Shown here: positions 10,263 to 63,730 of the stretch, piece by piece
Layout: each line of letters begins with the position of its first letter
How positions within the stretch are numbered: the first letter of the stretch is position 1
Made by a program: the position numbers and the translations under genes
Origin: Chrysomallon squamiferum
Taxonomy: Eukaryota; Animalia; Mollusca
DNA length: 64,000 bases
NCBI GenBank assembly: GCA_012295275.1
Contig: CM022671.1
Location: forward strand, 32,736,001-32,800,000
Direction: 5' to 3'
The notes under the pieces: generated by a model
What the model was told of the DNA's origin: nothing
Databases searched by the model: none
The model's input: only the letters and a program-made list of their open reading frames with translations

Positions 10263-10264
10263 GT

Positions 10265-11536: not shown

Positions 11537-13180
<1,644 letters not shown>

Positions 13181-15743: not shown

Positions 15744-18368
<2,625 letters not shown>

Positions 18369-22510: not shown

Positions 22511-23017
22511 CGGACCGATATTTACATCTACAAAGGCTGGTAGAACTTCCTGGTTCTTGTTATTCTGCAGAACTTGTCTCAACTGATTAAGATCTATTCA
22601 GAACTTTGCACCAAATTCTAAAACAGCATAAGACATTGTAAGAGATCAAAACTAAATCGTGTTTTGGCAAAGCCGAATTTTAAAAACGACATAGCCCAAA
22701 TTCAAACATCTTATTACCGAGTTTGAAATGGTCAAGAACATTTTGATATATATCATTTCTTTATAATTAAGCATTATCGATCATCTTAGTAGAAAAAAGA
22801 AAGAAAAACACTTTTTGAATTGCTGAACTTAGTATTACACTTTTCATTTGTGAAATTAAAACGAAGAAAATAAAAAAGAACAGTATGAAGCAGTTTGAGA
22901 TCTTTATTTACGTTTCAAAGTGATATTTGTCTTTATTTCCTGTAGAAGTATCTATGCAGCTGTTTTCTCTATGGTTAGTGTACCGGAACACTAAAACATA
23001 CTTTATCATTTTTTTCA

Positions 23018-27664: not shown

Positions 27665-27746
<82 letters not shown>

Positions 27747-28050
27747 GTTACATACAATAAACCTATCATATTTTTATAACTACTTTCATATGAACAAATG
27801 GTACTATTTTACTATTGTGGTACCATCATCGTGTCTGTTGTGATCTTCTGAACGCGTTTCCCTGTCTATAATTTCATTTTCTACTTCATCTTCGTCACCA
27901 TCCTCTCCAGCATCACGTTTCTCAGTGACTTTTCGTCATCATCCATCAACATCGTCTTTCTCAGTTATAGACCGTCTTTCTATCGTCTTCCTTAGCGTTA
28001 GTGAAAACAACAGCTACAGTTAACACAACCACGAGGAACAGTAGCTTCAT
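26970..28050 (-). pseudogene. Array copy D, His/Asp-rich subfamily; exon 2 frameshifted as assembled
   Basis: Exon 2 (28050-27824, 227 nt) reads ..NAKEDDRKTVYN*. Exon 3 (27501-27405) is intact, DYYRREHGHDDRRHGDRDYYHDKDDDWRRFHKK, and exon 4 (26985-26970) reads NYHH*. The frameshift may be an assembly error. Confidence 0.65.
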
Positions 28051-30305: not shown

Positions 30306-30870
30306 TCAGTGGTGAAATCCTCGGGGGCCACGCTTCTCTCTGTAGTAATCTTAAAGTAATATAAATTTAAATGGGTCAGTTCAGAGACAAACACATTACA
30401 TATGACTAAATAAATAAATAAATAAATATAATTTTATAGATACATACATATTCATTAATGTATGCAGACACACACATACATAAGTACATACATACAATCA
30501 AACGGATACATAAACATGGATACATACAAACATACATACATATAGATGAACATATATATATATATATACATAAAATAAACATATCATATTTTTATAACTA
30601 CTTTCATATGAACGAATGGTACTATTTTACTATCGTGGTACCATCATCATCTCTTTTGTGAACTTCTGAACGCGTTTCCCTGTCTATAATTTCATTTTCT
30701 ACTTCATCTTCGTCACCATCCTCTCCAGCATCACGTTTGTCTGTGACTTTGCCAGGATCAATTGCATGGACCAAGTCTTTCTCAGTTAGGGTCCGTTCGC
30801 TATCGTCTTCCTTAGCGTTAGTGAAAACAACAGCTACAGTTAACACCACCACGAGGAACAGTAGCTTCAT
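30306..30870 (-). CDS. Array copy E (90 aa), exons 3 and 4 fused by an in-frame deletion
   Basis: Exons 30870-30642 and 30349-30306. Mature part: RETR|SEVHKRDDDDYYREKRGPRGFHH*. Confidence 0.82.
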
Positions 30871-33955: not shown

Positions 33956-34644
33956 TCAGTGGTGATAATTTCTGAAAATAAATGGAATGATGACTGTTTA
34001 ATTATTTTTTAAATCCTTGTTGTAATTAAACACAAACAATGTCCAAAAATTTCTGTCTGTTACTCAGTTGTCTCTGTGAATCTATCATTCCTATCTATCT
34101 ACTTTGTATTTTTGTCAGTATCGTCACCTGTCTCCATACCTGTAATTCAGGCTGCAATAATGAGATGACAAGGAAGTACTAAATATGTGTATTTATAACG
34201 TAGAAATTATTTTTGAAGTATGTAATAATTATAACATGTATTGGAACGTTCGTAACATAAATAAATGCTCAGAAACAAAACAATAAAAGAAATGAAGGCA
34301 ACAATATTAGTAAAATAAATTTAAAACATCACAGATGTAAAACCAAATTAAGAAAAAAGGAAATAAAAATAACTTACTTCTTGTGGAATCTACGCCAGCC
34401 GTCATCTCTGTCATGATAATAGTCACGATCGTCATGTCTTCGATCATCATGTCCATGTTCCCTTCTGTAGTAATCTTAAAGTAATATAAATTTAAATTCA
34501 GAGACAAACACATTACATATGAGTAAATAAATAAATATAATTTTATAGATACATACATATTCATTAATGCATGCAGACACACACGCACACACACATAAAT
34601 ATACATGTACAAACACACATAAGTGCATACATACATATAGATGT

Positions 34645-34685
<41 letters not shown>

Positions 34686-34997
34686 GTTACATACAATAAA
34701 CCTATCATATTTTTATAACTACTTTCATATGAACGAATAGTACTATTTTACTATTGTAGTACCATCATCGTGTCTTTTGTGAACTTCTGAACGCGTTTCC
34801 CTGTCTATAATTTCATTTTCTACTTCATCTTCGTCACCATCCTCTCCAGCATCACGTTTCTCAGTGACTTTGTCGTCATCATCAACATCAGCAAGGTACG
34901 CGTCTTTCTCAGTTATAGACCGTTCGCTATCGTCTTCCTTAGCGTTAGTGAAAACAACAGCTACAGTTAACACAACCACGAGGAACAGTAGCTTCAT
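33956..34997 (-). CDS. Array copy F (115 aa), His/Asp/Arg/Tyr-rich peptide precursor
   Basis: Exons 34997-34763, 34474-34378 and 33971-33956. Mature part: RETR|SEVHKRHDDDYYRREHGHDDRRHDDRDYYHDRDDGWRRFHKKNYHH*. Confidence 0.88.
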
Positions 34998-38908: not shown

Positions 38909-39752
38909 TTATTTCCTGTAGAAGTATCTATGCACGTATATTGTTCCTCGACTTCTTTTGTAATGCGAATACACATAGTGTCTTCGACCTTTTTTCAGTG
39001 TTGCCATTCGATGACGTGGTAGATAAGCTCTGAAAATAAAATTAGAATGATCACTGTTTAATTATTTATTAAATCCTTGTTATAATTAAACACAAACAAT
39101 ATCCAAGAATTTCTGTCTGTTACTCAATTGTCTCTGTGAATCTATCATACCTATCTATCTACTTTGTATTTTTGTCAGTATCGTCACCTGTCTCCATACC
39201 TGTAATTCAGGCTGCAATAATGAGATGACAACGAAGTATTGAATATGTGTATTTATAACGTAAAAATTATTTTTGAAGTATGTAATAATTATAACACATA
39301 TTGCAATGTTTATATCATAAATAAATGCCAATAAAACCAGCAAGAACACAATAATAAAAGAAATGAAACCAATAATAATAGTAAAATAATACTAAAATAT
39401 CAGAGAAGCAACAAACACACACGCACGTGCGCACACACGCACACAAACACGTCGAAAAAAAAGATAAAGAAAAGAAAAAAGAAAGAACTTACCGCATTCC
39501 ATGTCCCCTATAAGCAGGAATAATCTTGAGGAAGTGGTGCCTACTGAATTGCTTCAGTGCAGCACAGTAACCTCCCGCTTTATTCCTTTGTATCACCACA
39601 TACCTGATTCGGTGGCCATGTAGCAATCTGTAGAAAACTTAAAACAAAACAGATTAACATTATTAAATAAATTTAGAAATAAACAATAATTAAATACGTT
39701 ATTTCAAGATATTCACACATTATGCAGATTGCGGCACACACACAGAGACATA

Positions 39753-39788
<36 letters not shown>

Positions 39789-40238
39789 TGTGAGTGTACA
39801 TATATATAATATACATTAATTGATGCAAACATATTAAAAACATACATGTCTACATGCATATATACATAAGTACATACCAACAATGAGACATACACACACA
39901 CACACACACACATATACATACATACATACACACTTACACACACAGAAACATACATACAATAAACCTATTATATTTTTATAACTATTTTCATATGAACGAA
40001 GTTAGACTATTTTATTATTTATGGTACCTTTTCTGTTGGAGTTTGATCGCGTTTCCCTGTCTATAATTTCATTTTCACCATCCTCTCCAGCATCACGTTT
40101 CTCAGTGACTTTGTCATCATCATCAACATCAGCAGGGTACGCGTCTTTCTCAGTCAGGAAGCTTTCTGTATCGTCTTCCTTAGCGTTAGTGAAAACAACA
40201 GCTACAGTTAACACCACCACGAGGAACAGTAGCTTCAT
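38909..40238 (-). CDS. Array copy G (158 aa), strongly cationic secreted protein precursor
   Basis: Exons 40238-40028, 39637-39493 and 39029-38909. Mature part: RETR|SNSNRKVFYRLLHGHRIRYVVIQRNKAGGYCAALKQFSRHHFLKIIPAYRGHGMRAYLPRHRMATLKKGRRHYVYSHYKRSRGTIYVHRYFYRK*. Confidence 0.9.
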
Positions 40239-43200
40239 GTTCAGCTTTCTGGCTAAATGAGACGAAAGTAATGAGCGTAGTAGACAGATGTTCAAATAAA
40301 TAAATAAGTAAATATATAGCTACGTCATTAGAATATGTATATTAAATAAAAATATACACGTAAACAGATACCACAGCAGTTGGTGGTCAATAGAACATCG
40401 TTATTTATAATAATAATAATAATGATGATGATGATGATGATGATGATGATAATAATAATAATAATAATGATGATGATAATAATAATAAGAAGAAGAAGAA
40501 GAAGAAAAAGAAACAGTACAGATTTCTAATAGTACAAAAAAAAATGGACAATATATCAAATCAGTATATGTATATATGAACTAACCATCAGAACACCAAT
40601 CTCCTCGCAAGAAAAGAAACTAAAAAATGTGAAAAGTTGCGAGACGCAGAATACAAACCTAACTTACGTTATCACGATAATGTCGTTTTGAGATTTAGAT
40701 CTGGAATTTCTGGGATACCATGCAGAGATTATGATTTTTATAGTTTAGACTACAATACAAATTCTATAACATTTGAAGAATTAAATCGACCAAAACAGCT
40801 ACATGAAAACATATTATGCTCTAAACTAAATAGTAAATTACATTTAGCGAGATGTAAAATTGTACACAAAAGATGGTTAAAAACAATACTTTCACAAATA
40901 AAGTATTCTGTTTCTCACATAATTATTAACACTATGTTTGTCTCTCTGAAGGTAAACTTACAACACCACAGATGGACTAAGATTATTGTTTTTCTAAATT
41001 TCTTCTAAATACATTTTGTTTCAAATAATGAATAGATTTTGAAATAGTAGCAAAAAATCGAATCTATGTTGTTTCCGCCAGTTCATTGTCTATTGTGAAT
41101 CTGTTTTCAGTTCAATTTATTTTCTGTTTGTTTATTGTGATCTGGAAAATACTAAATGAACTTATATGAATTAAACTATTTGATCATAAACTCTTTTTAG
41201 ATACACTGTAATTGTAGATGTCTTTCGTGGCTTGATCAAACATCCGTTTAATGAAATATTATCTGATTATTTCCGTTTTCATTCCATTAATTACTTTCTA
41301 ATAATCTGTAATTAAACATTTGAACAGTAGACCCGACAGGAAATAAATATATAATCTTCTTCAAAGAAACTTGAAATATGATTCTTCTCTATTGTACCAT
41401 GTTAATAAAATTTTGTATATGCATGATTTGATAATGTGAAAAATGGTTTTGCATATACTGGGCTTTACAGTTCATTAAATTTGTATACATTCATACTATA
41501 CATAAATCAGAATAGTACTAATTAACATCTGTTTTATGCAGATTACTAAATACATTTGAGCAGCACTTCGCCTGAATGGTTCTTTAAATTTGTAAATTAA
41601 ATATTCGACATCGAATACTGCATACTTGAACCAAACATCATAATGCAAAAACTCTTTTGTGAGAGAAAAATAAAACAGATAATGAATAACTGATAGTCGA
41701 ATTCTGAACTGTAATATTCGTTGTTTCTTCTACTTTGATATTTATTTATTTGTTTATTTTAATTCAAAAGTTTGTGATATGTTTTGGCGAGAAACCTAGA
41801 TATTCGAACATTGAACCTGTTTTCCTCTTGACATTTATTCCTTGTACTTCTTTTCACGTCTTCCTTCTATTTCATTGTTATTTCCCTTGAGAAAACACTT
41901 TGAACTGTTTCTATTTATGGTGTATCCGATTTATCAAAAATGACGATCAGGAAAAACACGAAATCGAAAAATACCAAATCTCATGGTTAGCGTCGTGTGT
42001 GTTTAATTCGTAATCTCTGAACTCAGTTCACGTCAGAAATAAATTTATATTTTTTACTGGAAATAATGAAAACATGTCTAAATAGTTAAAGAGATTCAGA
42101 GACATCAGTGACAAGTGTATGTACGCGTGCATGTATAATATAGAGAGACACCCGTAGTCGCACACACTGAGACACACACTGAGTTAAGAGACAACGAGAC
42201 AGACACGTGTAGAACAGAGACACTATGAGACACAAATAGCCAAATATCGACATATAAAATAGAGAATCGTACATAGACAATTTGGCAATACATGTAAACG
42301 GAATTAGCGAACGTTAAATTTTTGACATAAACGTTTAGAGATTTGTGAACTTACCACATTTTACTTTTCTAAAATTAGTGCCGTTCTTGCAGTAATGTTC
42401 TGGTTTGTAATAAACTTAGTTTTGTTGTCGCTTTTCTATCAGGTGAAAACAATAGTACCAATTATAAAAAATTATGTAGGAGAGACTCAACGACATCTGC
42501 TATTGCCATACACTAGTATTTTTTTTTTTTAAATAGCTCTCCTGATTGATTCTTCAAATTAGTAAAACTAATACTTGTCATTGAATACTCAAATATTTAC
42601 GAATTAATTCATTCGAATGTTTGAAACAATAACTAAAACAACAATGGCAGAAATATTTTATACCTTTCATAATCTGTCAGCATGGAAATACTTGTATTAC
42701 TCTCTGTGTCTATCTCTGTGTGCGTGCGTGTGTGTGTGTGTGTGTGTGTCTGCAAGAGAAACATATATACAAAATACCAACACACACACATAACAGCTTA
42801 CCTACGAAACTACCCGCCTACTTGCTTGCACACCTACATACATACTTACAAACATATATGTGATGAAGGGGAAAATATCTCCAGTCATACTATGAGCAAG
42901 TCTCTCGGATAATTTGAAATTTCCGATAGGTTTGTGGAAGAAAGTTCAATGTCAAAGAAGAATACTGAAGATGGAGAGAAATGTTCTGATGTCAAGGTCA
43001 AGGACCCTTATATTTTCATGATTAACGGAATGAAGTGAATTATAGATTATCGAGGAAACTGTACTGGTTATTAATTTTTGTTTTATTATTAAACTTTAGA
43101 TACTGTAAATTATTTAATTTCATTACTAAACGCACCTTTTTGAAAAGTCTTAACTGTCAGGCGCTTCATTTTATTTATTGATTTATTTTATTTTATTTAA

Positions 43201-44670
43201 TCATTTATTTATTTTATTGTTTTTATTTATTTATTTATTTTATTTTATTTATTTATTTTCAATGTGAGTGTGAATAAAACCGTCTCTGTTTCATACGTGT
43301 TCAAGAAATACTTTATTATTAAATTAGTCCAATACTTTGTTGCTTTTTTTTTTTCTTGATCAGTATTACGAGTGTACGAATCCGATACAAAATTTGCACC
43401 TTCACCGGCAAAATCTTTAGCAGGCTGTAACGTTCTGAAAAAACCTAAATCACAGCAGCCATTGGATGATTCGAGAAAGTTAGTAGATGTGATTTCAGGA
43501 ATGTGGAATATTTTTCTCGAACATTACAGATAGTACAGATTATTCCCAAATGTTTGCTTAATTTTTGTTACATTGTGTAGTCAGAAAAACATTTTAATTG
43601 ATAAAAACAGATATTCATTGCACCTGTCTTTATTTTAATAAGTTACTGATTCAGTTTGTACACGATCAGTACACCTAGGCTCAGTATGGCTATGAAAATT
43701 ATCACGTTACGAAAAAAGAAATAAATGGAATGACTTTTAAAAGCAGTTAAAATAATGCTGCCAGTATCATTGTTAACGTTTATTTCAAAATATTCTAAAT
43801 TTTCCTTTATTTAAAACTTTATTTACTCTATCTATTCAGAAGAACTTGTCACAAAAATCGTTTAGTATTCTTCTAAATATATTATTATTATTATTATTAT
43901 TATAGTTGTTGCTCTATTTTTCATTCGTACCGACAACAATAATATATTATGAACACGCTTTAAAATAATAAGTCAGGAATTGACTCCCTAATTCAGGGAC
44001 CCATCCATCAGTATTTACATGTACAAAGGCTGAACTACTGGGAGAATTTCCGCATCTTACTTATTCTATAGAACTTTCCTCAAATGTATAAGATCTGGTC
44101 AGAACTAGCACCAAGAATTGAAACAGCATAAGACATTGTAAGAGGTCGAAACTAAATTCGCTGTATTCTTTTTATTCAGACACCAAATAATTTTCTAGAC
44201 GCGACTTTTAAAAACTTGTGAACGTTTGCAGGAAATAATAAATAATAGTAATGCAACCGCTATCATCTGATTAAATAAAAATTAAGTCGTTTGAAAGTCA
44301 GTCAAAGTTTTATAACGTAGTTATGCGACAGCAGCATTGGCACAGGAAAGACGATTCACACAATTTGAGAAGAAACAGTGTCTAGCCAACGCGTTTTGAA
44401 TTTTAAATTTGACAGTCAAAATTCATACATTATTTTCAATAAATGTATTACCGAGTTGGAAATGGTCAAGAACATCATGTTTCTATTATCGTTTCTTTAT
44501 AATTAAGCATTATCGATCATCTTAGTAGAAAAAGATGAAAAAAAGAAACTTTTTGATTTGCTCAACTTGGTATTACACTTTTCATTCATTAAATTAAAAC
44601 GAAGGAAATAAAAAAGAACAGTATGAAGCAGTTTCAGATCTTTATTTACGTTTCAAAGCGATACTTGTCT

Positions 44671-45813
44671 CTATTTCCTGTAGAAGTATCTATGCGCGTA
44701 CACTGTTCCCAGTCTTCTGTTGTAATACAAATACACTACCAGATAGTGTCTTCGACCTTTTATCAGCATTGCAACTCGATGACGTGGTAGATAAGCTCTG
44801 AAAATAAAATTAGAATGATCACTCTTTAATTATTTTATTAAATCCTTGTTATAATTAAACACAAACAATGTCAAAAAATTTCTCTCTGTTACTCAGTTGT
44901 CTCTGTGTATCCATCATTCCTATCTATCTACTTTCTTACTATTTACATTCTATTTTTCTCAGTATCGCCACCTCTCTCCATGTCTCTAAGTCAGGCTGCA
45001 ATAGTGAGATGATAATGAAATATTAAATATTAGTATATTTATAACGTACAAATTATATCTGACATATTTAATAGAATAAATGAAAGCAATAACAATTGTA
45101 AAAATAATAATAATAAAATAATAAAAAAGAAAAGAAAAAGAACTTACTTCATTCCGTGTTTCTTATACGGATGAACTGAGTGGAAGCGGTACCCATAGAA
45201 CTGTTTCAGTGCAGCACACGAACCTCCCCTTCTGTGACTCGTTGTCACAACATACTTGATTCGGTGGCCACTTCTCACTTTGTAGAAAACTTAAAACAAA
45301 TAGAAACGTGATTAAACAAACTGACAGAAGAATTAAATGCATTAATTCAAGATTCTCACACATTTATATATATATATATATATTTATTTATTTATATATA
45401 TACTTTAATGGATGCACATATAGATAGTACATGTCTACATATACACATATATATATAAACAATAAAACATATATCCATCCATACATACATACATACATAC
45501 ATATATAAATATACGATAAACCTATCATATTTTTATAACTATTTTCATGTGAACGAACTGGTACAATTTTACAATTTACGATACCACGTCTTCTGTCGGA
45601 CGTTGAACGCGTTTCCCTGTCTATAATTTCATTTGCTTCTTCATCGTCGTCACCATCCTCTCCAGCATCACGTTTCTCAGTGACTTTTCCAGAATAATCA
45701 TCATCACCTAGGTCCAAGTCTTTCTCAGTCAGGATGCTTTCTGTATCGTCTTCCTTAGCGTTAGTGAAAACAATAGCTACAGTTAACACCACCACGAGGA
45801 ACAGTAGCTTCAT
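44671..45813 (-). CDS. Array copy H (165 aa), strongly cationic secreted protein precursor
   Basis: Exons 45813-45585, 45289-45148 and 44797-44671. Mature part: RETR|STSDRRRVFYKVRSGHRIKYVVTTSHRRGGSCAALKQFYGYRFHSVHPYKKHGMKAYLPRHRVAMLIKGRRHYLVVYLYYNRRLGTVYAHRYFYRK*. Confidence 0.9.
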
Positions 45814-45970
45814 GTTCAGCTTTCTGTAATGAGTATAGTAGAAAGATGTTCAAATAAATAATAAATAAATAAATGTACAGCCACGTCATTAGAATATGTA
45901 TATTAAATAAAATACATACGTAAACGGGTATCAGGCTACAGGAGTTGGTGTGGAATAGAACATCGTCATT

Positions 45971-46016
<46 letters not shown>

Positions 46017-48689
46017 GTAATACGAAGAAGAAGATGACGAAGAAGAAAGAACAATAAGGAGAAGGAGGAGGCTGAAGACATAACAGTAGAATTTCTAATA
46101 GTATCAAAATGAACAATATAATCAAGTCAATATATATATATATATATATAAGATATATATAAGATATGAACTAGATGTGAACTAACCATCAGAACACCAG
46201 CCTCCTCTCGAAAAAAAGAAACTAAAAAATGTGAAAAGTTGCGAGACGCAGAATACAAACCTAACTTACGTTATGACGATAATGTCGTTTTGAGATCTGG
46301 ATGTGGAATTTCTGGGATACCATGTAGAGATGATGATCTTTATAGTTTAGACTACAATACGAATTGTATAACTTTTGAAGAATTAATCGTCCGAAACAGC
46401 TAGATAAAAGCATATTATGCTCCAAAATAAATAGTAAATTACATTTAGCGAAATATTAAATTGTACACAAAAGATGGTTAAAACCATTGTTTTCACAAAT
46501 AAAGTATTCTGTTTTTCACATAATTATTAACACTATGTTTGTCTCTCTGAAGGTAAACTGACAACACCACATATGGACTAAGATTATTGTTTTTCTAAAT
46601 TTCTTCTAAATACATTTTGTTGCAAATAATGAATAGATTTTGAAACAGTAGTAAAAAATCGAATCTATGTTGTTTCCATCACTTCACTGTTGATTGTCAA
46701 ACTGTTTTCAGTTCAATTTGTTTTCTGTTTGTTAACTGTGATCTGGAAAATACTAAATGAAATTATATGAATTAAACTATTTGATCATAAACTCTTTTTA
46801 GATACACTGTAATTGTAGATGTCTTGTGTGGCTTGATCAAACATCCGTTTAATGAAATATTATCTGATTTATTTTGGTTTTGCATTCCATTAATTATTTT
46901 GTAGTAATCTGTAATAAAAAAATTATAACAGTCGACTTGACAGGAAATATATATTATCTTTTTAAAAGAAATTCGATTCCTCTGTATTGCATCATGTAAA
47001 TAAAAATAATTTTTAGAACTTTGTATATGCATGATTTGATAATGTGAAAAATTGTTTTCCGTACATTGGGCTGTAAAAGCCTTTACATTTCATAAAAAGA
47101 TGTATACATTTATACTAATCAAAAACAAAATGGAACTAGGTAACATGTGTTTCTGTAGGTTACTTAAATACATTTCAAAAACACTTCGCCTGAATGGGTC
47201 TTTAAATTTGAAATACTGAAATGTAAGACAGAATCGGCTACCAGCTAGTTCATACATACACACCCAAACATCATGATGCAAAAACTCTTTTGTGAGAGAA
47301 AAATAAAACAGATAATGAATAACTGATAGACGAATTCTGAACCGTTATATTCATTGTTTCTTCTATTTTGATATTTATTTATTTGTTTATATTAATTCAA
47401 AAGTTTGTGATATGTTTTGGCGAGAAACCTAGATATTTGAACATTGAACAAAACCTGTTTTCGTGTTGACATTTATTTCGTTTTAAAGTCTTCCTTCTAT
47501 TTCATTCTTTTTTCCCTTAACCAAACACTTTCTAGTGTTTCTGTTTCCGGTGTGTCCGAGTTAACGTCCAGGGAAGACACGAAGTTGGGAAGTAACAGAT
47601 GGTTAGTATGTTGTTTGTTTAATTCACTATATCTGAAATCAGTTCACGATAGAAACAACTTTATTAATCGTCTACTGGAAATAATGATAACGTCCAAATA
47701 GTTAAAGAGACTCAGATACATCAGGGACACGTGTATGTATATATATAATATAGACACCGATAGTTGCCAAAATACAACAGATTTACATGCTGAGTACAGA
47801 GACAACGAGACACACGTGCAGCACAGACACACTATGATACTCAGTTAGCCAAGAATCAACATATAAAATAGAAAATCGTACATAGACAATTTGGCCATAC
47901 ATGGAAACAATATTCACAGTTAAATGAAATGATAATAGAAGAGGGAAACTAATAAACTATTATATATCTAAAGGAGTGAAGATCAGGTATTTTGACAATA
48001 GTGTATTCATGTACGCCTAGTTCAGAAGTTCGATTATACCTATGCAAATTCATAGGACAAATAACATTATTAAACCGATCTAGTTCTGTGTACATTTTAT
48101 TTATTTGGAAGGAGGCTTTTATTGTTGTTTTCTTTTATAAACATATGAAGCTCATATGAAGTTCGCCAAAACTGTTTGATGTTGATTTCTTACAAATATA
48201 AGTGAACAGACTCTACTATCGTATTTAAATTACTCACACGTTCTTATTCCTGGAAATTATTAATATGCAAAGCTCCCTTTTATCTATTTGTTCTTTCCGT
48301 TATATGAATGTTAATTAATTAGAAATACTAGCTGGGGACTGAACTGAAAACCGAAATACATTTTCAGTATTAATCTTTAGAGATTTGTGAATTTACAATA
48401 TTTTACTGTTCTTTTAATGTGTGCAGTTCTTACTATATTTTACTTTCATTTTAATGCGTGCAGAATTTACTATACTTTACTTTTTATTTAATTGGTGCAG
48501 TTCTTCCTGTAATGATCTGGTTTGTAATAAACTTGGTTTTGTTGTTGCTTTCATATCTTAATAAAGTGAAAACAACAGTACCAATTATAAAAAAAATAAT
48601 GTAGGCAACATGTCGTCGACATCTGGTATTTTCATGCACAAGTTGTTTTTGTGAAATAGTTCGCCTGCCAAATTAGCAAAATTAAACCT

Positions 48690-48990
48690 GTCATTCAACA
48701 TGACAACGCTAGACCTTATACCGCTAGGCCAACAACCAATTTTCTTGAGTGGAACCACATCCAAGTGTTGAACTGGCCACCAAAGTCCCCTGACTTGTCC
48801 CCAACTGAGCATGCATGGGTCCTACTGGGCTGTAGGGTTCGCAAAAACCATCCTCATATCCTTAATGTCCATGACCTACAAACTGCTCTGAACCGGAAAT
48901 CACTGTTCCTGACATCAAAGATCTCGTTAGAAGCACGAGACGACGATGTACTGCTGTCAGCAATGCCGCTGGTGCAAACACACATATTGT
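48690..48990 (+). mobile_element. Tc1-like transposase C-terminal (DDE) relic
   Basis: QHDNARPYTAR..FL..NHIQVLNWPPKSPDLSPTEHAWVLLG matches the Tc1 QDNA..WP..SPDLNPIE.W motifs. Confidence 0.88.
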
Positions 48991-49146
48991 TGAGCCTCCC
49001 TCACCATTTTGTTAGATGTACATTAAAGTGACGACGTGACAATATTCTGAAATGTTGTATCAGTCAAATAATTTGTACAAATAAATTCAACATCCGATCA
49101 GGTTGTCTGTATTTTATATCTTGTACGTAATTGCTAAACTTATTTG

Positions 49147-49197
<51 letters not shown>

Positions 49198-51639
49198 ATC
49201 AACAGACATACATAACTACCTACCTACCTGTCGTCCTACTTATCTACTTACCTACCAAACCACCTGTCACTGTGCTTCCTTGCTTACCTATATATATATA
49301 TATATAATTATAAATAAAAAATGTAATGATACATAAATTCATAATTAAAGATGCATGCATATACACATAGAAGCATACCTACAAACATATATACATAAAT
49401 ACATACATACATACATACATGGATTAGGAGATAAGTACGAACGTATACTTACGCATCTATACCTTTATCAGTACCTGAATATATGTTCCATCAATGACAT
49501 AAGATACCAGTTCAGTTAGTTGTACTCGGATTTGTTGAGATTAGCAAGTCTTAAAGTATTTTCAGTAAGAATGTCGACTTTTCAAGGAGAACGACTCCTA
49601 CCGTAATAGTCGAATCTGTTTTCTACAACTGCAACAAGTACAACAGCTACAAAAGCAACAATAATAATAATAAATACAGAAAAATACTAAAATACTTTTA
49701 CGATACGTAATTCTAAATATGTTCAGATCATAAAGTTTAATATAATATGAGAAAATTCATTTTAGAGAATTCATTTCTCATATGATGATTACATACTAAA
49801 TTATTCTGACAGCTTAATTTAAACCAGAAGTAAAAAATAGGAAATTTAACTTATTCCTGTTACTACTCAATTGCAATTTCTTGATTATTGATTGATTTAG
49901 TTTTAGGAAGAGTTAGAGAGTACAACATCTCATCTGTTTATGTTTAGCTTGAAGAACGCAACTCAAGGAAACAAAAATTTAAGTTCTTGGAGAAGGTTGG
50001 GTTTCTTTAATATTACTATGAAAACGAACGAATAAAATTTCGATAAAAGCTTCCTGTGATGCAGAATCAGGGAAGATTATCAGTAGTCAGAAAAATTAAA
50101 TCTAGAAGGAAAAATGATCCTGAATTAAAATCAGGAGAAGATTGAATAAAATACCTTCAACGGAGAGGAAACAGACAATTACGTGTTTGTCTAAGAATGT
50201 ATTTGTGATGAAGCGGAAAATTTGTCCAGTCTTACTATGAGCAGGTCTCTCAAATGATTTGCCGTTTCCGATAGGTTTGTGCAAGAAAGTTCAATGTCAT
50301 GAAAGAATATTGCCGACGTAAAATTCAAGAATTCTAATTAGTCGAATGAAATGATTTGTAGATGCTCGAGGAAATTATGTTCATTATTAAAAAAAAAAAA
50401 AAACATTTTACTTATTAAACTTTAAGTGTAGTAAATTATTTTATTTAATTATGAAATGTACATTTTAGAAAAATTCGAAAGATTGACAGATTTTTAAAAA
50501 AATGTCCTTTTGTTTATTTATTTATTTTCATCGGGAGTGTAAATAAAAATATCTCTTTCATATGTTTTCTAGAAATACCAATTTAGTGATAACGACATCT
50601 TCATACATAAGTTAGTCGAATAATTTGTTGCTTTTTTCTTCTTCTTGATTAGTATAACGAGTGTAAGATTCAGTTTCAGAATTTGCTCCTTAAATTTAAT
50701 GGCAAAATCTTTAGCAGGCTGTAACGTTCTGAAATGAACTAAATCATAGCACTGGATGATTCTAGAAAGTTGGTAGATGTAATTTCATTGATGTGGAATG
50801 TTTTTCTCGCTCAAGACACATAGTGCAGATTACTGCCAAATGTTTGCTGAATTTTTGTTACATTGTGTAATGTGAAACAACATTTTATAGATATTATGGT
50901 GTACCTGTCTTTATCAAACTGCTTTCAAAGTATGTCTTTAATTTTTTGTTTTGTTTAGTTTGTTTGCAAAATAATTTATTATGAAGACGTTTTAAAATAT
51001 TACAATAGGAGTTGTCCCCCTTAGATTATTAGCATTCTTATTTTCATGGTCTTAAACACTTTAATGATGAAATATGGATATTTTATAAGATTGCTAATCG
51101 CAACAGATAAGGTTCAGTGATCAGGATTGGTTATGATGCACCCAGAAATGTTCATCCACTCATACTGTTGATGTGATCCACTTTGAGCTGGTAAAAAGTA
51201 AAGACTTGTTATCAGTCACAAAGGGTTAGCGTTTCACAAGAATAATGTACGGACCAATATTTACATCTACAAAGGCTGGTAGAACTTCCTGGTCCTTGTT
51301 ATTCTGCAGAACTTGCCTTAACTGATTAAGATCTATTCAGAACTTTGCACCAAATTCTAAAACAGCATAAGACATTGTAAGCTGTCAAAACTAAAGTCTC
51401 TGTATTCTTTTTATTCAAACAGTAAATAATTTTATACGACATTCGAAAGCTTGTGAACCATTTACTGGAAGGAATTAATAATAATAATGAAACCCTTACT
51501 ATTTGATTAAATAAAAAAACAAGTCTGCTTTTTTAATGATCATTTTTAAATTAAATTTTAAAATCCTTGAATTACAGGTATAGAAAGAGGTGACGATATT
51601 AAGAAAAATACAAAGTAGATAGATAGGAATGATAGATAC

Positions 51640-52050
51640 AAAAACAATGTCCAATACTTTCTCTTTGTTACTCAGTTGTCTCTGTGTATCCATCATTCCT
51701 ATCTATCTACTTTCTTACTATCTACTTTGTGTTTTTCTTAATATCGTCACCTCTCTCTATCCCTGTAATTCAGGCTGCAATAATGGGATGACAATGAAAT
51801 ATTAAATATTAGTATATTTATAACATACAAATTATATTTGACGTATTTAATAATTATAACATGTATTACAATGTTTATTTTATTAATAAATGCTAAAAAA
51901 AAAATAAAAAATAAGAATAAGACATAAAAGAAATAATAATAGTAAAATAATTTTTAAATATCGTAGAAGAAACAAACAAAAAAGAAAGAAATAAAAGGAA
52001 AAGAAAGAGAACTTACTTCATTGCGTTTCTCCTATAAGGACCGATCGTCT
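51640..52050 (-). pseudogene. Array remnant: 3' end of exon 3 plus intron 3 only
   Basis: ..TIGPYRRNAMK|GTAAGT at about 52017-52050 matches PYKKHGMK|GT of copy H. It is followed by paralogous intron-3 sequence; exons 1, 2 and 4 are absent. Confidence 0.7.
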
Positions 52051-52679
52051 TGCTCTTCTTGTTGCTGCTACTGTTGTTGTAGTTTTTGTCGTTGGTTAAA
52101 CATAATTATTAATTCATTATGAACAAATATTAGATAATAACAATGGGAGTTGTTCCCCTTGAATAGTCAACATTCTTATGTTAAGGACTGGAAATATTTA
52201 ATGATGAAATATGGATGCTTTATAATTTGCTAATCATCATAGATAATTCTTGAGTGTTGGCGAAATGTATTCTGTAATAGTTTTGTTACACGAACTTTAC
52301 ACCAAGACGTAAAAGTTAATAATACATTCTAAGAGGTGAAAACTAAATTCCTGTATTCTTTTCTTTCAGACAGCTGAAGGTGTTTTACTGTCTAACAAAC
52401 TTTTATGAGACAATCCTAGGGATCCGCTTCTTCAACATTACGAAGTTTTCCACTGATTTTATCTTAAGTAGCTGCATGCGTCAGATCTTTCCTAGCAATG
52501 GACCATCATCAGTTTCTGGTGTCTTGTCATTAGCAAAAAGAACAACCACTCTCTTCAAAATCAAGAGAGAAAATAATTTTTAAAAAAAGAACAAAAAAAG
52601 AAAGAAAGAAAGAAGAGAGAAACAAATAATCAAAGAAAACAACTAAATAGTAACAAATATGTAATAATAATAATAATAA

Positions 52680-52710
<31 letters not shown>

Positions 52711-52859
52711 AAAAATATAATAATAATAATAATAATAAAAATAGTAATAATAATAATGAGTATGTTTTGTACATTTGCAAAATAATTAACAAAAAGAAAA
52801 CTGTATATTTACATAATAGTTATTTTAGATAAGTAATATTAATGCTCTGACGTTCACTG

Positions 52860-53910
52860 AACTATAACAATTCATAGTGAAACTTTCTTTTAATGTAAAT
52901 AATGACTTCATTTATAAATAGCTGTGAATGACTTGAATAGCTTTTAGAAACTGTTGTGAATAACGTTGAATTGATTATTCTGTACTGTATCGAAACAAAA
53001 TTCATAACTGTGTAACTCTGCACAATAAATTGATTATGTGCAGTATTTTCGATTGTTTTCTCTTTCGTTTTCCAAAATCGACTGTTACTGTCGCTTTGAC
53101 ATAAATTCAACAGCGAATGATACTGTCTGCCTGCATATTTTTGGTACAGATTCAGACATAATTCTCCAGAGTTAAAAGCAACTGACTAGATGTCTATAGT
53201 GGTCTGTTGATGTATACAGGTTAGATTTAGAACTTTTAGAAACGAAAGAAAATAAATTTTGGTTTTAATAGGTAATGTTTATGCACCGCAAGGCTTTCAC
53301 TCGTTAACAACTCTGACGTTTCGGGGGACTTGGTAAAGACATTAGAAGATGAGTCATTTCGGGTATTATTAATGTTTTAAGAATTGTTACGTTACCTAAT
53401 ACTGTAAACTTCCTGAATGACCAAATGTTAATCACCTTCTTAATTTGCTGGAATTTAGAATGAAAACTAGATTCTATTATCTCATTTAAATTTAAAGTAA
53501 AATTGATACGAAGCAAACTAAACTGGTTTAAACCCCATTCTGACATCCAACGAGTATGGTGACAAATATCATTAGAATATTTTCACTGCCTATCCAAAAG
53601 ACTTTAGACTTAATATAGTTAATTTTTAGGCTTTCAAATGTCGGCTTAAAAATCAAGTTTTCTCGTTGTATTGTTCAGGGATTTAGGAGATCTATCAAGA
53701 ATGGTGTCATCAGCATAGTGTGATACTAAATATTCGGTACCATCAATGGTGATCCATTTAATATCCTTTTTGTTTCTCATTAAAATACTTGAAGTTTCGG
53801 CGCATCAAAAACATAGGGTTACAGAGAGCATTCTTGTCTGCCTAATCTTTGCAGCTTAAACGTTTCTGAAATATAACCATTTGCTATCACTCTGGAAAAT
53901 GAATATTTTA
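52860..53910 (-). mobile_element. Degenerate LINE (L1/Tx1-like) reverse transcriptase fragment
   Basis: GTEYLVSHYADDT (YADD at ~53706-53717), followed by KSKVFWIGS..IKKVINIWSFRKFTVLGNVTILKTLIIPEMTHLLMSLPSPP; multiple frameshifts. Confidence 0.85.
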
Positions 53911-54309
53911 AAAGTTGAAAATATTTGTTGTTTATTTTGTAAATAATCATTTAAATAATCTTTTGTAATAGTTTGACCTAGTTTTTGATATGCTACACAC
54001 ATTGTTTTCACAAATAAAGTATTCTGCTTTTCACATAATTATTAAAACTATATTTGTTTCTCTGAAGCTAAACTGACAGCATCACAGATGGCAATGAGAT
54101 GATTGTTTTTATAAATTTCTACTGAAAACTTTAGGTTACAAATAACGAACAGATTTTGAAATGGTAGTAAAAAATCGAATCCATGTTGTTTCCGCAACTT
54201 CACACTCAAAATCCTCTAAATTTACTTTAATGAAAACTTTATTCACTGTTAATATTCTTAATAACTTGTCATAAAAGTAGTTTAATATTCTTGTTAAAGT
54301 TATTATTAC

Positions 54310-54397
<88 letters not shown>

Positions 54398-55017
54398 GGT
54401 GTTGCTCTAGTTTTCATTGCTACTGACAACAATAATTTATTATGAACACTGTTTAAAATAAGACGATAGGATTTGTCCCCTAATGTCCGGACCCATGCAT
54501 ACATATTTACATCTACGAAGGCTGAAACAGTGGGAGAAATTCCAGATCTTCTTTCTTCTCCAGAACCTGCCTCAACTGATTAAGATCTATCAGAACTTGC
54601 ACCAAGTTGTAAAACCGCATAAAACAATGTATAATTACCGAAATTAAATTTTCTGTATTTTTTTTCTTCAAACACCAAGTAATTTTCTGGATGTGACATT
54701 AAAAAACTTGTGAATGATTTGCAGCAAGTACGTATTAATAATAAAAAAACCTCGTTATTATCTGATTAAATAAAACGATACACACAATTTGTGAATGAAC
54801 AGTGTTTTTGGCAAGGCGTTTCGAATTTTAAAAATGACAGTCAAAATCCAAAGGTTATATTCCGTAAATGTTATTAACCAGTCGGAAATGGTCAAGAACA
54901 TCATGTTTCTATGTCTTTTCTTTAGTATTCAGCATTATCGATCATCTTAGTAGAAACAAAAAAAAAAAAATAATAATAATAAATAAAATAAAAAAAAATA
55001 ATAATAATAAAAAAAAA

Positions 55018-55082
<65 letters not shown>

Positions 55083-55217
55083 CAATAATAATCTGTTGGA
55101 TCTGCTGAATTTAGTATTACATTTTTCAATTTTTAAAATTAAATGAAGATAAACAAAAATTAAGAACAGTATGAGCAGTTTCAAATCTTTATTTGCTTTT
55201 CAAGGCGATACTTGTCT

Positions 55218-56020
55218 TTAGCTCTTGTAGAAGTATCTGTGCAGGAGTACTGCTCGACTTTTTCTGTCATAAGACTGACTCGTTACAATGTAGTATGTTT
55301 TCCATTTCTGCAGAGCTACTGATCGATGACCTTTTAGGCGACCTCTGAAAATAAAATTAGAATGATCACTGTTTAATTATTTTATTAAATCCTGGTTATA
55401 GTTAAACACAAACAATGTCCAAGACTTTGTCTCTGTCACTCAGCTGTTTCTGTGTATCCATCATCCCTATCTGTCTACTTTCTTACTATCTACTTTGTAT
55501 TTGTCTGAATATCGTCTAATTGAGGCTGCAATAATGGGTTGATAATAAAGTATTAAATGTTTATTGATAACACACAAATTATTTTTGACGTATTATTTAA
55601 TAAATATAACACGTTATTGCTATGTTTATATATTTTAAAAATGCTAAAAAAACAGTAAAATAATTTTAAAATATGAGATAACAAAAAAACAAATAAACAA
55701 AACAAAAAAAAAAAAAACCTGAAAAAAAAAATAAGAAAAAGAACTTACATCATTCCGATTTTCTTATACGGATAAATATAGAGGAAACGGTAACCATAGA
55801 ATCGCTTTAGTGCAGCACATTGACCTCCTTTTTCATGCCTCGTTATCAAAACAACCTTGATTCGGTAACCATTTATTGTTTTGTAGAAAACTTAAAACAA
55901 AACAGAATAACATTATTAAATAAACTAATTAAAAAAAAAAAAAAACACTAGAATTAAATACCATAATTCAAGATATTTAGACATTATATATATGTGTACA
56001 CACACAGGCACACAAGCGCG

Positions 56021-56070
<50 letters not shown>

Positions 56071-56370
56071 TGCACACAATAAACCTATTATATTTTTATA
56101 ACTATTTTCATATGAACGAAGTAGTACTATTTTACTATTTATGGTACCTCTTTTGCCTTCTTCTGAACGCGTTTCCCTGTTTAGAATTTCATCTGTTATT
56201 TCGTCACCATTCTCTTCAGCATCACGTTTTTCAGAGATTTTATCATCACTAATAGCACGGGCCAACAATTTCTCAGTTAGGGAGCCTTCGCTATCGTCTT
56301 TTTCACCTTCCTTAGCGTTAGTGAAAACAATAGCTACAGATAACACCACCACGAGGAACAGTAGCTTCAT
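55218..56370 (-). CDS. Array copy I (163 aa), cationic secreted protein precursor
   Basis: Exons 56370-56148, 55890-55749 and 55344-55218. Mature part: RETR|SEEGKRVFYKTINGYRIKVVLITRHEKGGQCAALKRFYGYRFLYIYPYKKIGMIGRLKGHRSVALQKWKTYYIVTSQSYDRKSRAVLLHRYFYKS*. Confidence 0.9.
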
Positions 56371-56763: not shown

Positions 56764-59241
56764 ATATGAACCAGATGTGAACTAACCATCAGAACACCAA
56801 TCTCCTTTCGAAAAAAGAAACTAAAAAATGTGAAAAGCTGCGAGACGCAGAATACAAACCTAACTTACGTTATGACGATAATGTCGTTTTAAGATCTGGA
56901 TGAGGAATTTCTGGGATGCCATGTAGATCTTTATAGTTTAGATTACAATACGAATTTATTATCCAAAACATCTAGATAAAAACATATTATGCTCCAAACT
57001 AAATAGTAAATTACATTTAGCGACATGTAAAATTGTACACAAAAGATGGTTAAAAACATTGTTTTCAGAAATAAATTATTCTGTTTTTCACATAATTATT
57101 ACTATTATGTTTGTCTTTCTGAAGCTAAACTGATAGCATCACAGATGGCAATGAGATGATTGTTTTTATAAATTCTACTGAAAATGTTTTGTTACAAATA
57201 ATGAATGGGTTTCCGCCACTTCATTGTCTATTGTAAATCTGTTTTCAGTTCGATTGGTTTTCTGTTTGTGTATTGTGATTCGAAAAATATTAAACGAATT
57301 TATATCAATTTAATAATTTCATTATAAACCCTTCTTAGATGCAATGTAATTGTAGACGTTTTTCGTTCCTTGGTCAAACCATCCGTTTTATGAAATACTA
57401 TCTGATTTATTTCCGTTTTCATTCCATTAATTACTTTCTTATAATCTGCAATTAAACATTTTATATAATCCTTTGGAAAGAAATCTGAGATATAAATGAT
57501 TCCTCTCTTTTGTACGATGTAAGAAAAATAATTTTTAGAAATTTGTATTTGTATGATTTGGACATTTGAAAAATGATTTTCCGTACATTGGGCTGTAAAA
57601 AACCTTTATAATTCATTAAAGTTGTATTGATGTATATTAATTATAAAAGCAAATAGAATTAATTAACATCTGTTTTTGTAGGTTACTAAACACATTTGAA
57701 AAGCACCTCGCTTGTATGAGTCTTTAAATTTGTATATTAAATACTCGAATACTGAAATGTAAGCCAGAATCGGCTACCAGCTAATTCAGATCCACCTCAT
57801 GATGCAAAGACTCTTTTGTGAGAGAGAAATAAAACAAATAATGAATAACTGATAGACGAATTCTGAGCTGTAATATTTATTGTTTCTTCTACTTTGATAT
57901 TTGTTTATTTGCTTATTTTTATTTTAGTTTTTTGAAAAAGTAGAACAAAACGATAATAAAAAAAAGACTTTCCGAAGTCGTGAAATAACAATCTCATGGT
58001 TAGCATGCTGTTTGTTTAATTCGTAATATCTGAAATCAGTTCACGTCAGAAACAAATTTATAGTTTTTACTGGAAATAATGGAAACGTGTCTAAATAGTT
58101 AAAGAGACATCAGTGACAAGTGTATGTACACGTGCGTGTATAATATAGAGAGACACCCGTAGTCGCCAAAATACAGCTGAGACACACACTGAGTACAGAG
58201 ACAACGAGACAGACACGTGTAGAACAGAGACACTATGAGACTCAGTTAGCCAAACATCAACATATCAAATACAGAATTGCTCACAGACGTAAACACTTTG
58301 CGATACATGTAAATGGATTTCATAAACGAAAATGAAAACATATTAACTGAAATCATTATAATCATAGTGCACAATTTAATAATCGTTCGGTGATACCTAT
58401 GCAAATTCACAGGACAAAATTACATTATTAAACCCGTCTACTTCTGTGTACATTTTATTTGTATGGAAGCAAGCTTTTCTTTTATAATTATTTGAAGCTG
58501 ATATGACGTTCGCCAAAATCGTTTCATGAAATTTCTTACAAAAAGAAGCTGAACACAGACCAAGACTGAATTTAAATGACTCGTTCTTATTCCTGAAAAT
58601 TATTAATATTAAAGTTCCTTTTATCTGTTTTTTTTTTCCGTTGTTTGTAGGTTTATTAATTAAATAATTATTTATTTATTTATTTCATTATTATTATTAT
58701 TATTATTATTTTATTATTATTATTATTAAAATGTGTAACAGAGCAGTCGAATTTTAAATAAGAAATATAATACAGGGACTGAATTGAAAACCAAAATACA
58801 TTTGTAATAAAAATATTTTGAGATTTGTGAATTTACTATATTTTACTTTTCTGAATTAGTGCAGTTCTTCCTATAATGATCTGGTTTGAATTAAACTTTG
58901 TTTTGTTGTTGCTTTCATATCTCAATAAAGTGAAAACAACAGAATCAATTACAAACATTAATGTAGGCAAACGTCGACATCTGCTATTTTCATGCACCAG
59001 TTGTTTTTGTGAAATAGTTTGCCTGGCAAATTAGTAAAATTAACAGCTCTCATTAATTACTTAAATATTTACGAACTAATCCATTCGGATGTTTGAAACA
59101 ATTAATAAAACAATAATGGCAGAAATATTCTATACCTTTTAATCTTTGTAATCTTTCATTATGGAAATACTTCCATCTGTTTCTTTATCCATATGTCTAT
59201 CTATCTCTGTCTCTATAACTATCTATCTATTTGTGTGTGAG

Positions 59242-60666: not shown

Positions 60667-61344
<678 letters not shown>

Positions 61345-61345
<1 letters not shown>

Positions 61346-61422
61346 TCAAGACTATGGCGTTGTTTGTGTTTAGATATCCTCTGAAAATATTAATGTAGTC
61401 ATATATTTAATTATTGCTTTTG

Positions 61423-61517
<95 letters not shown>

Positions 61518-63528
61518 TCGACAGAGGCGCTGAAAGAAAGAGATATAATAAACATGGCAAAACATACTATTTTAATAATTATTAAATAAGTTAGACGCAA
61601 TTTTTACGTTATAAATATTTAATATTTTACTGTCAGCCATTAATGCATCCTCAGTTACTGATATGGCGAAAGATGAATAAATAAAGAAAAAAATAGAGAA
61701 AGTAGATAGGTACAGCCATTTACTTGTTTTTCTTTTATGATAATTTTTGTTTATTTTACGATTATTTTTCTTTTCATTTCTTTTATTTAATAGCTGTTAG
61801 TGCTGGGTTTTGAATTATTTATTTTTAATATAATCATTGCAACAGATATTATAACATCAAATGTAATTTGTACATTATATATACGCGTATATTTAGTATT
61901 TCATTGTCATCCCATTATTGTATTCTGAATTAGTGATGTGAAAAGAGGTGAATAAATAAAGAAAAATATATAAATAGATAGCAAGATAGCAGAGAGACAA
62001 CTCGCTTACGCTATTTTCATAGTTCGCGCGCACTGGTGTTGTCCTCACCAGACCGGAGCTACTCACTCGCCGCATTGTTTACGTGTCGAGTAGCCACTTG
62101 TGTATCGTCAGTTTTCTTTATGTTTTAAATTTTAAAATGTTTATGCCTAATTATTTACGTATTTAGATGCCTTGGTACCAGAAAATCGGAAAATCAAGAA
62201 ATCGGAATGCCTCAGGCCCCAATGAGTCTGGTTAATCGGTCCTGTACCCGTACTACTACGAATAATAGTGAATTTTGAACAATACTGAACTAATTATGAG
62301 TGCTAAGTCTAAATACGTACAGTTAATACAGTTTCAAATAAGCGAATGTTTATTTATTATTAACATTTTCTGATCTCGAGAGATAAACAAGAAATTCGTA
62401 TTATTCTTAATATTTATTTCAAAATTTTGTGTCACGTTTCATGTTTATTATATGTATCCATTCAGAATAACTTGTCATAAAAGTGTGTTCTTCTTCTAAA
62501 AAAATATTATTATTATTATTATTATTATAGTGGTAGTGCCGGCAGTTGCTGTTGTTGATGTCGTTGGTAATGCATCATTATTATTACGAACACATCTTAG
62601 AATATGACGAAAGCAGATTCCCCATTGAATTATCAACATTCTTACGTTACGGTTACAAATGTGGATACTATATTAGATCGCTCATCTCAGCAGATCATGA
62701 TTCAATGCTGGCGAACCCAGAAATGTTCATCCATTCCGAGGAATGTTTGGTTAAACATTTTGTGGGATACTGTTGACGTGATTCATTTTAAGCTGCTAAA
62801 AAAAAAAAAAAAAAAAAAAAAGAAAGACTTATCGTTATCAGTAACAAATGGTTTGCGTTTCACGAGAATAAATTACGGATCCCACACATCGCTATTCAGT
62901 CTTCAAAGACTGAAAAACTGCAAAACATTCTTCAGCATCCTACTCATTTTCCGGATCTTGCCTTATCTGATTACGAACTATTCCGAAGTTTTCACCACGA
63001 TATAAAACAGCATAAGAGATCAAAAGTAAATTCTCTGTATTCTTTTTATTCACCAAATAATTTCATAGCTTGAAAGGGTCGGTGTATGATTAAATAAAAA
63101 TTAATACATTTGACTCACACTGCTTTATTTAAACCTAATTTTGACACGTCAGTTGCCGCATTAAATATTTATAATGTACAAATTGCATTAGACTTATTTA
63201 ATAATTAACTATTAAAAATAAATATTTCAAAACATAACACTACCTCATACTAAAAAAACCAGTAAAATAACTTACTCTATTTCAGGTGTTTTATGGTTTC
63301 GATAAGGAACAATCGTACGGAACTTCAAGCTTATGAATTCCTTTATGGCAGCAGAGCAACGTCTCGATTTATCCACTGTTGTGAACATTTCTGAATGGGA
63401 CGACATATCTCAGTCCACAGAAAAATAAAATAAAATAAAACAAATAAATAAAAATAAGACAAGAATTAATTGGGCTATTTCAAGACACTCACACATTACA
63501 TACATATATATTACATGAATTTGTTCAC

Positions 63529-63559
<31 letters not shown>

Positions 63560-63730
63560 AATGCATATACCTTTCCTGTAAGGTTTTGAACGCGTTTTCC
63601 TATCTAAAAGTTCGTTTATCAGTTCATCTTCGTCACCATTCTCTCCAGGATGTCGTTTTTCACCAACTCTGTCATCACTAATTGCACGGGCCAACTTTCG
63701 CTGTCGTCTTAATCAGCGTTCTCAGCGTTA
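61345..63730 (-). pseudogene. Array copy K, decayed
   Basis: The exon-2 remnant (~63730-63571) has no signal peptide and contains a stop and frameshift, ending ..ELLDRKTRSKPYRK G|GT. Exon 3 (~63420-63276) reads ..RRCSAAIKEFISLKFRTIVPYRNHKTPEI GA|GT. Exon 4 starts at 61380 (GYLNTNNAIVLR) and is cut by the junction with copy J. Confidence 0.75.
62005..62252 (+). mobile_element. MITE-like element, same family as 17046-17705
   Basis: Shares gctattttcatagttcgcg..cactcgccgcattgtttacgtgtcgagt..ggaatgcctcaggcccc and ends in TAATCGGTCCTGTACCCGTA. Confidence 0.8.

Follow-up and report, generated by a model that had tools for sequence, protein, structure and literature searches.

Gene structures of the long-cargo precursors

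The DNA analysed here is a stretch of 64,000 nucleotides of contig CM022671.1 (the window), which contains an array of related genes for predicted secreted precursors. Three members of the array on the minus strand, designated G, H and I, occupy the range 38909..56370, which is bounded exactly by the last base of the G stop codon (38909) and the ATG of I (56370). An earlier note on this DNA had proposed G, H and I as genes that pair an acidic pro-piece with a highly cationic cargo, and as predicted genes they held up well: the coordinates are exact, the frames are intact, and each gene is divided into three coding exons by GT-AG introns of phase 1 and then phase 2 (6/6 coding introns, predicted from the sequence). 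The predicted products of 158 (G), 165 (H) and 163 (I) amino acids (aa) share the order of signal peptide, acidic pro-piece, RETR and cationic cargo. A TATA box and an inferred 5' non-coding exon lie at corresponding places in the three genes (Table 1), and an AATAAA signal is found no more than 24 nt from the stop codon in all five long genes of the window (A, B, G, H and I). Judged by these sequence features, the family of G, H and I is a real and well-formed set of orphan genes, whose precursors follow a known logic and carry an unrecognised cargo.

We consider it very improbable that the modelled long products fail to be made, through a retained intron at the weak first donor or silence of the duplicates, and that the cargo lacks a function. 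The exon-2 donors are indeed weak in G, H and I (GTACCA, GTATCG and GTACCA, respectively), omega is near 1 as described below, and broken copies lie nearby. On the other hand, all five long copies are still open, with the same intron phases and a high charge, although their amino acids have diverged by up to 83%. When random substitution was simulated at the observed paralogue distances, the frame survived in 2-8% of the 5000 runs made for each setting, and a net charge of at least +18 was kept in 4-20% of the runs, with the mean falling to +11 to +15. G-like and H-like last exons were also present in a second data set, the run X1. In the G-like exon, 14 of the 17 listed differences from H had the letter of G, and the six listed coding differences of the H-like exon comprised four non-synonymous and two synonymous codon changes, with no stop among the differences listed. 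At the last intron of H, for which four runs were compared, the reads came from X1 alone and covered intron and exon continuously with no splice joints, a DNA-like pattern.

Ten copies in the array start with the same signal. A typical signal peptide, judged by eye and not by a predictor, was recognised in all ten copies that have a start codon, and a protamine-like sperm nuclear protein was rejected on this ground, because such proteins carry no signal peptide. The array comprises eight open copies, two broken copies (D and J) and two relics (at 52 kb and at 63.3-63.7 kb). The earlier note had confined the long-cargo class to G, H and I; all three belong to it, but so do A and B, whose exon phases are identical. 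Homology of the A and B cargoes to those of G, H and I beyond composition was supported by five of five cross-profile tests, which beat 1000/1000 shuffles. The long cargo form is probably ancestral, because A and B carry it, traces of the long last exon persist past the stops of C, D, E and F, and the tree of the first coding exon places C to F together with G, H, I and J and separately from A and B (89/95, not starred; rooted at the midpoint, with both outer branches long).

Charge, composition and predicted fold of the cargo

The composition noted earlier for the G cargo was reproduced: after RETR, 94 aa include 16 Arg, 8 Lys, 9 His and 11 Tyr and no Asp or Glu, with an isoelectric point (pI) of 11.5. 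The three motifs VFY[KR]xxxG[HY]RI[KR]xV, GGxCAALKxF and C-terminal HRYFY[RK] are present in all three genes, and the cationic part after RETR has 94-96 residues in each. However, the absence of acidic residues applies to G only, since H has one and I has four. Similarly, the proposed Tyr/His richness stands for Tyr (11-13 in G, H and I) and for His in G and H (8-9), but not for His in I, which has three. Across the five long copies, the cargoes (88-102 aa, pI 10.3-11.5) keep a net charge of +18 to +25 at 17-61% identity, while they contain 3-13 Tyr, 3-9 His and 0-4 Cys (G, H and I one each, A none, B four). Charge, rather than Tyr or His, is thus the conserved property of the cargo as read from these sequences. 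The first cargo exon has five invariant columns over the five long copies, three Gly, one Ala and one Phe, which point to a folded unit. The single Cys of G, H and I lies unpaired in GGxC; it is absent in A and displaced by one column in B. This residue may allow disulfide-linked dimers.

A structural or adhesive matrix protein (of operculum, periostracum, scale, radula or egg capsule), which would bind chitin or mineral and be cross-linked through 3,4-dihydroxyphenylalanine (DOPA), His and Lys, is a possible but unlikely identity of the cargo. The 11-13 Tyr of G, H and I and the 8-9 His of G and H agree with it, and the His/Asp/Tyr-rich cargo of copy F could bind metal. DOPA-type adhesives are characterised by Tyr richness that is kept family-wide, in repeats or low complexity. 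This is not the pattern here: Tyr falls to 8 in A and 3 in B, His to 3 in A and I, Gly counts reach merely 7-8 in G, H and I, and no repeats were seen in the family alignment. The DOPA/quinone cross-linking suggested earlier is therefore weakened. Peltospirid shell and scale proteomes are described as containing uncharacterised lineage-restricted proteins and tyrosinase domains, in the available part of PMC11871041. Searchable supplements of this paper and of PMC7142155 contained none of the family's short motifs, a weak negative as accessions may be listed there without sequences.

Structure predictions and fold searches were made with single exons. The model of the first cargo exon is a hairpin plus helix (predicted local distance difference test, pLDDT, 48.5) and that of the last exon a three-strand meander (pLDDT 65.5), both of low confidence. 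The earlier suggestion of beta-hairpins around one helix therefore agrees with the hairpin-helix-sheet layout of these models, but the alternation of hydrophobic and basic residues on which it was based does not exceed shuffled sequences: 244, 260 and 287 of 300 shuffles reached the beta moments of G, H and I. Because the low-confidence models are beta-rich and the hydrophobic moments are not above shuffles, the data point to a small folded domain whose surface is basic and whose hydrophobic strands would lie between basic Gly-rich turns, rather than to a lytic amphipathic peptide; membrane lysis through amphipathicity is accordingly not favoured. Fold searches with the 39-residue model of the last exon gave a best E value of 0.87 and a best Z of 4.2, with generic meanders alone and no family excluded. 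A complex prediction of the pro-piece with the two cargo halves scored 0.00 and weighs neither way.

The acidic pro-piece and its processing sites

The pro-piece of G has 45 aa with 19 Asp plus Glu, as noted before, and those of G, H and I have 45-50 residues, 17-22 of them acidic. Over the five long copies the pro-piece is 41-50 aa long with a net charge of -5 to -15. The earlier note proposed that the pro-piece neutralises the cargo. A partial offset is present, but uncleaved long pro-proteins retain +8 to +16 (pI 9.5-10.1), and pro-piece acidity does not track cargo charge among the five long copies (rho -0.41, p 0.49). Moreover, the most acidic pro-regions (-13 to -16) precede short, near-neutral cargoes of 0 to +7, which inheritance could explain, as these copies are young. 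In abalone, FITZAP partners of -8 and -10 package proteins of +12 and +22 in a salt-dependent manner, according to the available text of PMC6952181. FITZAP, too, offsets the charge of lysin and sp18 only in part, so packaging suits the pro-piece better than plain neutralisation does.

RETR is found in nine of ten copies and ends the pro-piece in four of the five long ones, A lacking it. In addition, the pro-piece contains a KR, and past RETR a further dibasic site occurs in G, H, I, C, E and F. In G, H and I this second site stands just before VFY and suggests a cargo of 88-89 residues starting there. The proposed furin release of a 94-aa cargo is consistent with RETR; neither furin nor the 94-aa start is settled, however, because RETR is a minimal R-X-X-R and differs from the R-X-K/R-R described for oyster big defensins (PMC3182236), and because a KR lies upstream of it and a dibasic site downstream. 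The secreted prepro architecture with a cationic cargo is supported by the sequences of all five long copies.

Acidic spacers and dibasic sites are also typical of neuropeptide- or venom-type precursors, in which further cleavage of the cargo yields short active peptides, and 1-3 internal KR/RR sites occur in each cargo. These sites are not at shared positions in the five copies (only G64 and H63 match), no repeated peptide is present, and the Gly, Ala and Phe columns conserved across all five argue for a folded unit. Such a precursor is highly unlikely here.

Divergence among the copies

Among G, H and I, identity decreases from the signal (89-95%) through the pro-piece (59-78%) to the cargo (41-61%). 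Of the aligned bases, 21-35% differ in cargo exons and 14-19% in pooled non-coding DNA, a pool that leaves out the short, microsatellite-rich first coding intron (14-27% different). For the three pairs the differences were 56/263 in cargo exons vs 172/1223 in non-coding DNA (p 0.005), 92/263 vs 238/1234 (p 1e-7) and 85/269 vs 211/1213 (p 5e-7). The cargo diverges fast, and omega gives no significant positive selection.

Fast cargo divergence would equally be expected of reproductive secretions (acrosomal, seminal, egg-coat or pheromonal), in which the acidic pro-piece would act as an internal FITZAP for dense packing and release in seawater. The host is likely a gastropod, like abalone, and the charge imbalance is the same as that of lysin and sp18 against FITZAP. 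Lysin (+12) and sp18 (+22) of abalone are secreted cationic proteins that evolve fast; acidic, disordered, furin-processed FITZAP of smaller opposite charge packages them, and the salt of seawater releases them, as far as described in PMC6952181. Unlike the pro-piece here, FITZAP is a separate gene product, and exon-level queries gave no PDB or Pfam match to lysin or sp18. The beta-rich structure predicted with low confidence also differs from the helical lysin, and the many broken copies and the switch to short neutral cargoes would suit defence families at least as well. We regard a reproductive role as a minority candidate, less probable than not by a wide measure.

Searches for relatives

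All homologue queries were single exons of 39-70 aa, which limits their power. No Pfam family was found for any of 11 exon queries and there were no Rfam matches. Exon profiles against PDB sequences gave best E values of 0.24-0.31, and the ESM Atlas gave a best value of 0.82 in one search and nothing in the other. A word search of 5.8 billion proteins, which covered longer proteins only, yielded no relative among 356 candidates for the cargo exon alignment or among 89 for the signal/pro exon. HMMER over 1.84 billion representatives gave nine matches, eight with 5-11 matched stretches and one with none; the two inspected, P0004 and P0006, were both rejected as unrelated repeat proteins. Exact look-up of the sequences returned 0/7, and searches of metagenome contigs returned 0/594 and 1/463. 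The candidate L001 (5700-7820) was rejected as a 16-residue chance match on a bacterial-looking contig of 61% GC with no DNA likeness to the window; by eye, this match faces a long helicase-like frame on the other strand. No publication describing the G/H/I family was found by title or abstract start, in a search that covered few subscription journals. Because the queries were short and small, narrowly expressed genes are often unannotated, these negatives suggest the lack of a close annotated relative rather than demonstrate a new fold.

Other features of the window

The window is AT-rich (GC 24-36% in 2-kb bins) and microsatellite-rich, with spliced genes, all of which mark it as eukaryotic. 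The coordinates of the array and of its neighbours are given in Table 1. The cargo of copy F (37 residues with 7 His, 10 acidic residues and 5 Tyr) is a candidate metal binder. Among 3487 candidates, the intronless receptor-like gene has a single match that reaches E 1e-60, a protein of the vent snail Gigantopelta aegis with 60% identity; by this one gene, the host is likely a gastropod and possibly related to that snail. The receptor-like gene is possibly a divergent chemosensory-type channel. The PRDM-type frames adjoin a tandem repeat region. Decayed mariner-type transposase fragments lie between gene copies, with look-alikes near 51 kb, and an element shared between the long intron of B and the neighbourhood of J is likely a small non-autonomous transposon.

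Table 1. Coordinates of the gene array and other features in the window
Feature	Position	Strand	Description	Basis
G coding exon 1	40028..40238	-	signal peptide (residues 1-19, by eye); acidic pro-piece that contains a KR; RETR; linker with RK at its end	sequence
G coding exon 2	39493..39637	-	cargo first half; VFY motif, GGxCAALKxF with single Cys; hairpin + helix predicted, low confidence	sequence, exon model
G coding exon 3	38909..39029	-	cargo second half and stop; three-strand meander predicted; AATAAA 24 nt past stop	sequence, exon model
G TATA box and 5' non-coding exon	40668..40742	-	TATA box (40742), inferred exon (donor GT at 40667)	exon inferred, as conserved across C-I
H coding exon 1	45585..45813	-	signal, pro-piece, RETR, RRR	sequence
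H coding exon 2	45148..45289	-	cargo first half	sequence
H coding exon 3	44671..44797	-	cargo second half, stop	sequence
H TATA box and 5' non-coding exon	46270..46344	-	exon inferred	sequence
I coding exon 1	56148..56370	-	signal, pro-piece, RETR, KR	sequence
I coding exon 2	55749..55890	-	cargo first half	sequence
I coding exon 3	55218..55344	-	cargo second half, stop	sequence
I TATA box and 5' non-coding exon	56869..56935	-	exon inferred	sequence
Copy A	11537..13180	-	intact long-cargo gene; exons 13180-13000, 12544-12388, 11687-11537; 162 aa; cargo +21, 102 residues, no Cys; no RETR	
Copy B	15744..18368	-	intact long-cargo gene; exons 18368-18161, 17919-17763, 15873-15744; 164 aa; cargo +25, 95 residues, 4 Cys, 3 Tyr	
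Copy C	23474..24080	-	short Arg-rich cargo, net +7; 102 aa precursor	
Copy D	26860..28050	-	broken in first coding exon, frame ends at 29 aa	
Copy E	30306..30870	-	short cargo, net +2; 90 aa precursor	
Copy F	33956..34997	-	short His/Asp/Arg/Tyr cargo, net charge 0; 115 aa precursor	
Relic	51994..52038	-	3' end of cargo exon plus donor; no matching first coding exon found	
Copy J	60667..61373	+	inverted; first coding exon intact, cargo exon with stops in all three frames	
Relic copy K	63293..63677	-	decayed first coding exon and cargo exon	
Nicotinic-receptor-like gene	5778-6884	+	intronless, 368 aa; has a Cys loop and a very short intracellular loop; vicinal Cys pair not seen	
Tandem repeat region	7171-8324			
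PRDM-type PR/SET domain	9635-10483	+	two open frames; PF21549, E 2e-9 and 6e-18	Pfam
Mariner-type transposase fragments	22359-22586, 62604-63005	+	decayed; PF01359, below cut-off	Pfam
Shared element	17194-17648, 62021-62254		internal inverted repeat 17194-17489	

Discussion

Alvinellacin, an antimicrobial peptide of the vent worm Alvinella pompejana, is a short disulfide-bonded peptide with a BRICHOS pro-domain, whereas no Pfam domain was found in the pro-piece of the G/H/I family. It offers a parallel as a vent-animal antimicrobial peptide that also shapes the symbiont community (PMC4002450, as far as its text was available). The known system that may be closest in its way of working is proMBP-1, with a signal, an acidic N-terminal pro-piece believed to protect the cell in transit, and a highly basic cargo (MBP, 117 aa, pI 11.4, +15; available text of PMC11483036). 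This analogy may not extend to the fold: proMBP-1 has a C-type lectin domain and a 90-residue pro-piece (PMC11483036), whereas G, H and I have one Cys each and the long copies have pro-pieces of 41-50 residues that leave +8 to +16. No Pfam or PDB match to a C-type lectin was obtained for single exons, and the lone Cys argues against one.

Two molluscan families were also compared, each from the available part of its description. Mussel myticalins share the conserved signal, the hypervariable cationic cargo, the dibasic cut, an anionic pro-region, a non-coding first exon and pseudogenes (PMC5577615). Membership was nevertheless rejected, as their anionic part is C-terminal and their cargo consists of 23-42 unstructured residues with pI above 11 (PMC5577615), while the anionic part here is N-terminal and the cargo has 88-102 residues over two exons with pI 10.3-11.5. 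Big defensins have a signal, a pro-piece, a furin-like site and a cationic mature part of 87-94 residues on two exons (PMC3182236). They were rejected as well, because their pro-piece is cationic, of 13 residues with an R-X-K/R-R end, and their mature part combines a hydrophobic domain with six Cys (PMC3182236), which belong to a C-terminal beta-defensin domain. The long copies here differ in having 0-4 Cys and an acidic pro-piece of 41-50 aa, which ends in RETR in four of the five.

The reading we favour, to which we give about an even chance, is that the long-cargo genes encode secreted host-defence proteins that attach to the anionic surfaces of microbes once convertases have cleaved them, while the pro-piece helps to package the cargo and to mask it in part. 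This reading is supported because the architecture is kept in five of five long copies, the charge is conserved, a conserved signal is joined to a variable cargo, the cargo diverges in excess, and copies are born and die. Conserved signals, hypervariable cationic cargoes and pseudogenes are features of antimicrobial and toxin families, according to the available text of PMC5577615, and acidic partners have precedents in proMBP-1 (PMC11483036) and abalone FITZAP (PMC6952181). In the proposed sequence of events, the signal peptide would send the precursor into the secretory path, where the disordered acidic pro-piece would partly screen the cargo and help granule packing rather than cancel its charge. 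Proprotein convertases would then cut at KR, at RETR and at the dibasic site before VFY, and release into a high-salt fluid would weaken the remaining salt bridges. The folded cargo could bind lipopolysaccharide, teichoic acid, sulfated glycan or DNA and so agglutinate or damage microbes by a route other than a simple amphipathic helix.

Several points weigh against host defence. Every sequence feature cited for it also fits reproductive proteins. Killing by highly cationic proteins is often salt-sensitive in seawater, and most shuffles (233-300 of 300) have higher helical moments than the cargoes. The maximum-likelihood estimate of omega for the cargo, 1.27-1.36, is not distinguishable from 1 (p 0.25-0.37); the estimates are 2.2-2.6 for the last exon (p 0.06-0.11) and 1.9-2.0 for the pro-piece (not significant). 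The excess of cargo-exon differences could also be explained by gene conversion of the flanks, and gapped intron alignments understate non-coding divergence. No canonical kappa-B site was found in the window (0.47 expected). A looser 11-base kappa-B pattern had nine matches against four expected, a number reached by 5 of 100 shuffles; four of the nine are two palindromes counted on both strands.

A bolder form of the host-defence reading, which we consider rather doubtful, is a cysteine-poor, beta-rich cationic family of undescribed fold that polices the bacterial partners of a chemosymbiotic vent snail, with short His/Asp/Tyr metal-binding peptides spawned by loss of the cargo frame. No description of peltospirid antimicrobial peptides was found in the literature searched, which covered few subscription journals, and a term search of the available text of PMC7895826 found none of six defence terms. 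The antimicrobial families so far described from molluscs are mostly disulfide-bonded or short and linear. A domain of about 90 residues that is strongly cationic, poor in cysteine and unmatched in the databases searched would be a new scaffold. The array itself, in which signal and pro-piece were kept while the long cationic cargo was swapped for short neutral ones, would serve as a natural control for the role of the acidic pro-piece. If the host is a vent snail, the family would be a concrete candidate for microbe control in such animals.

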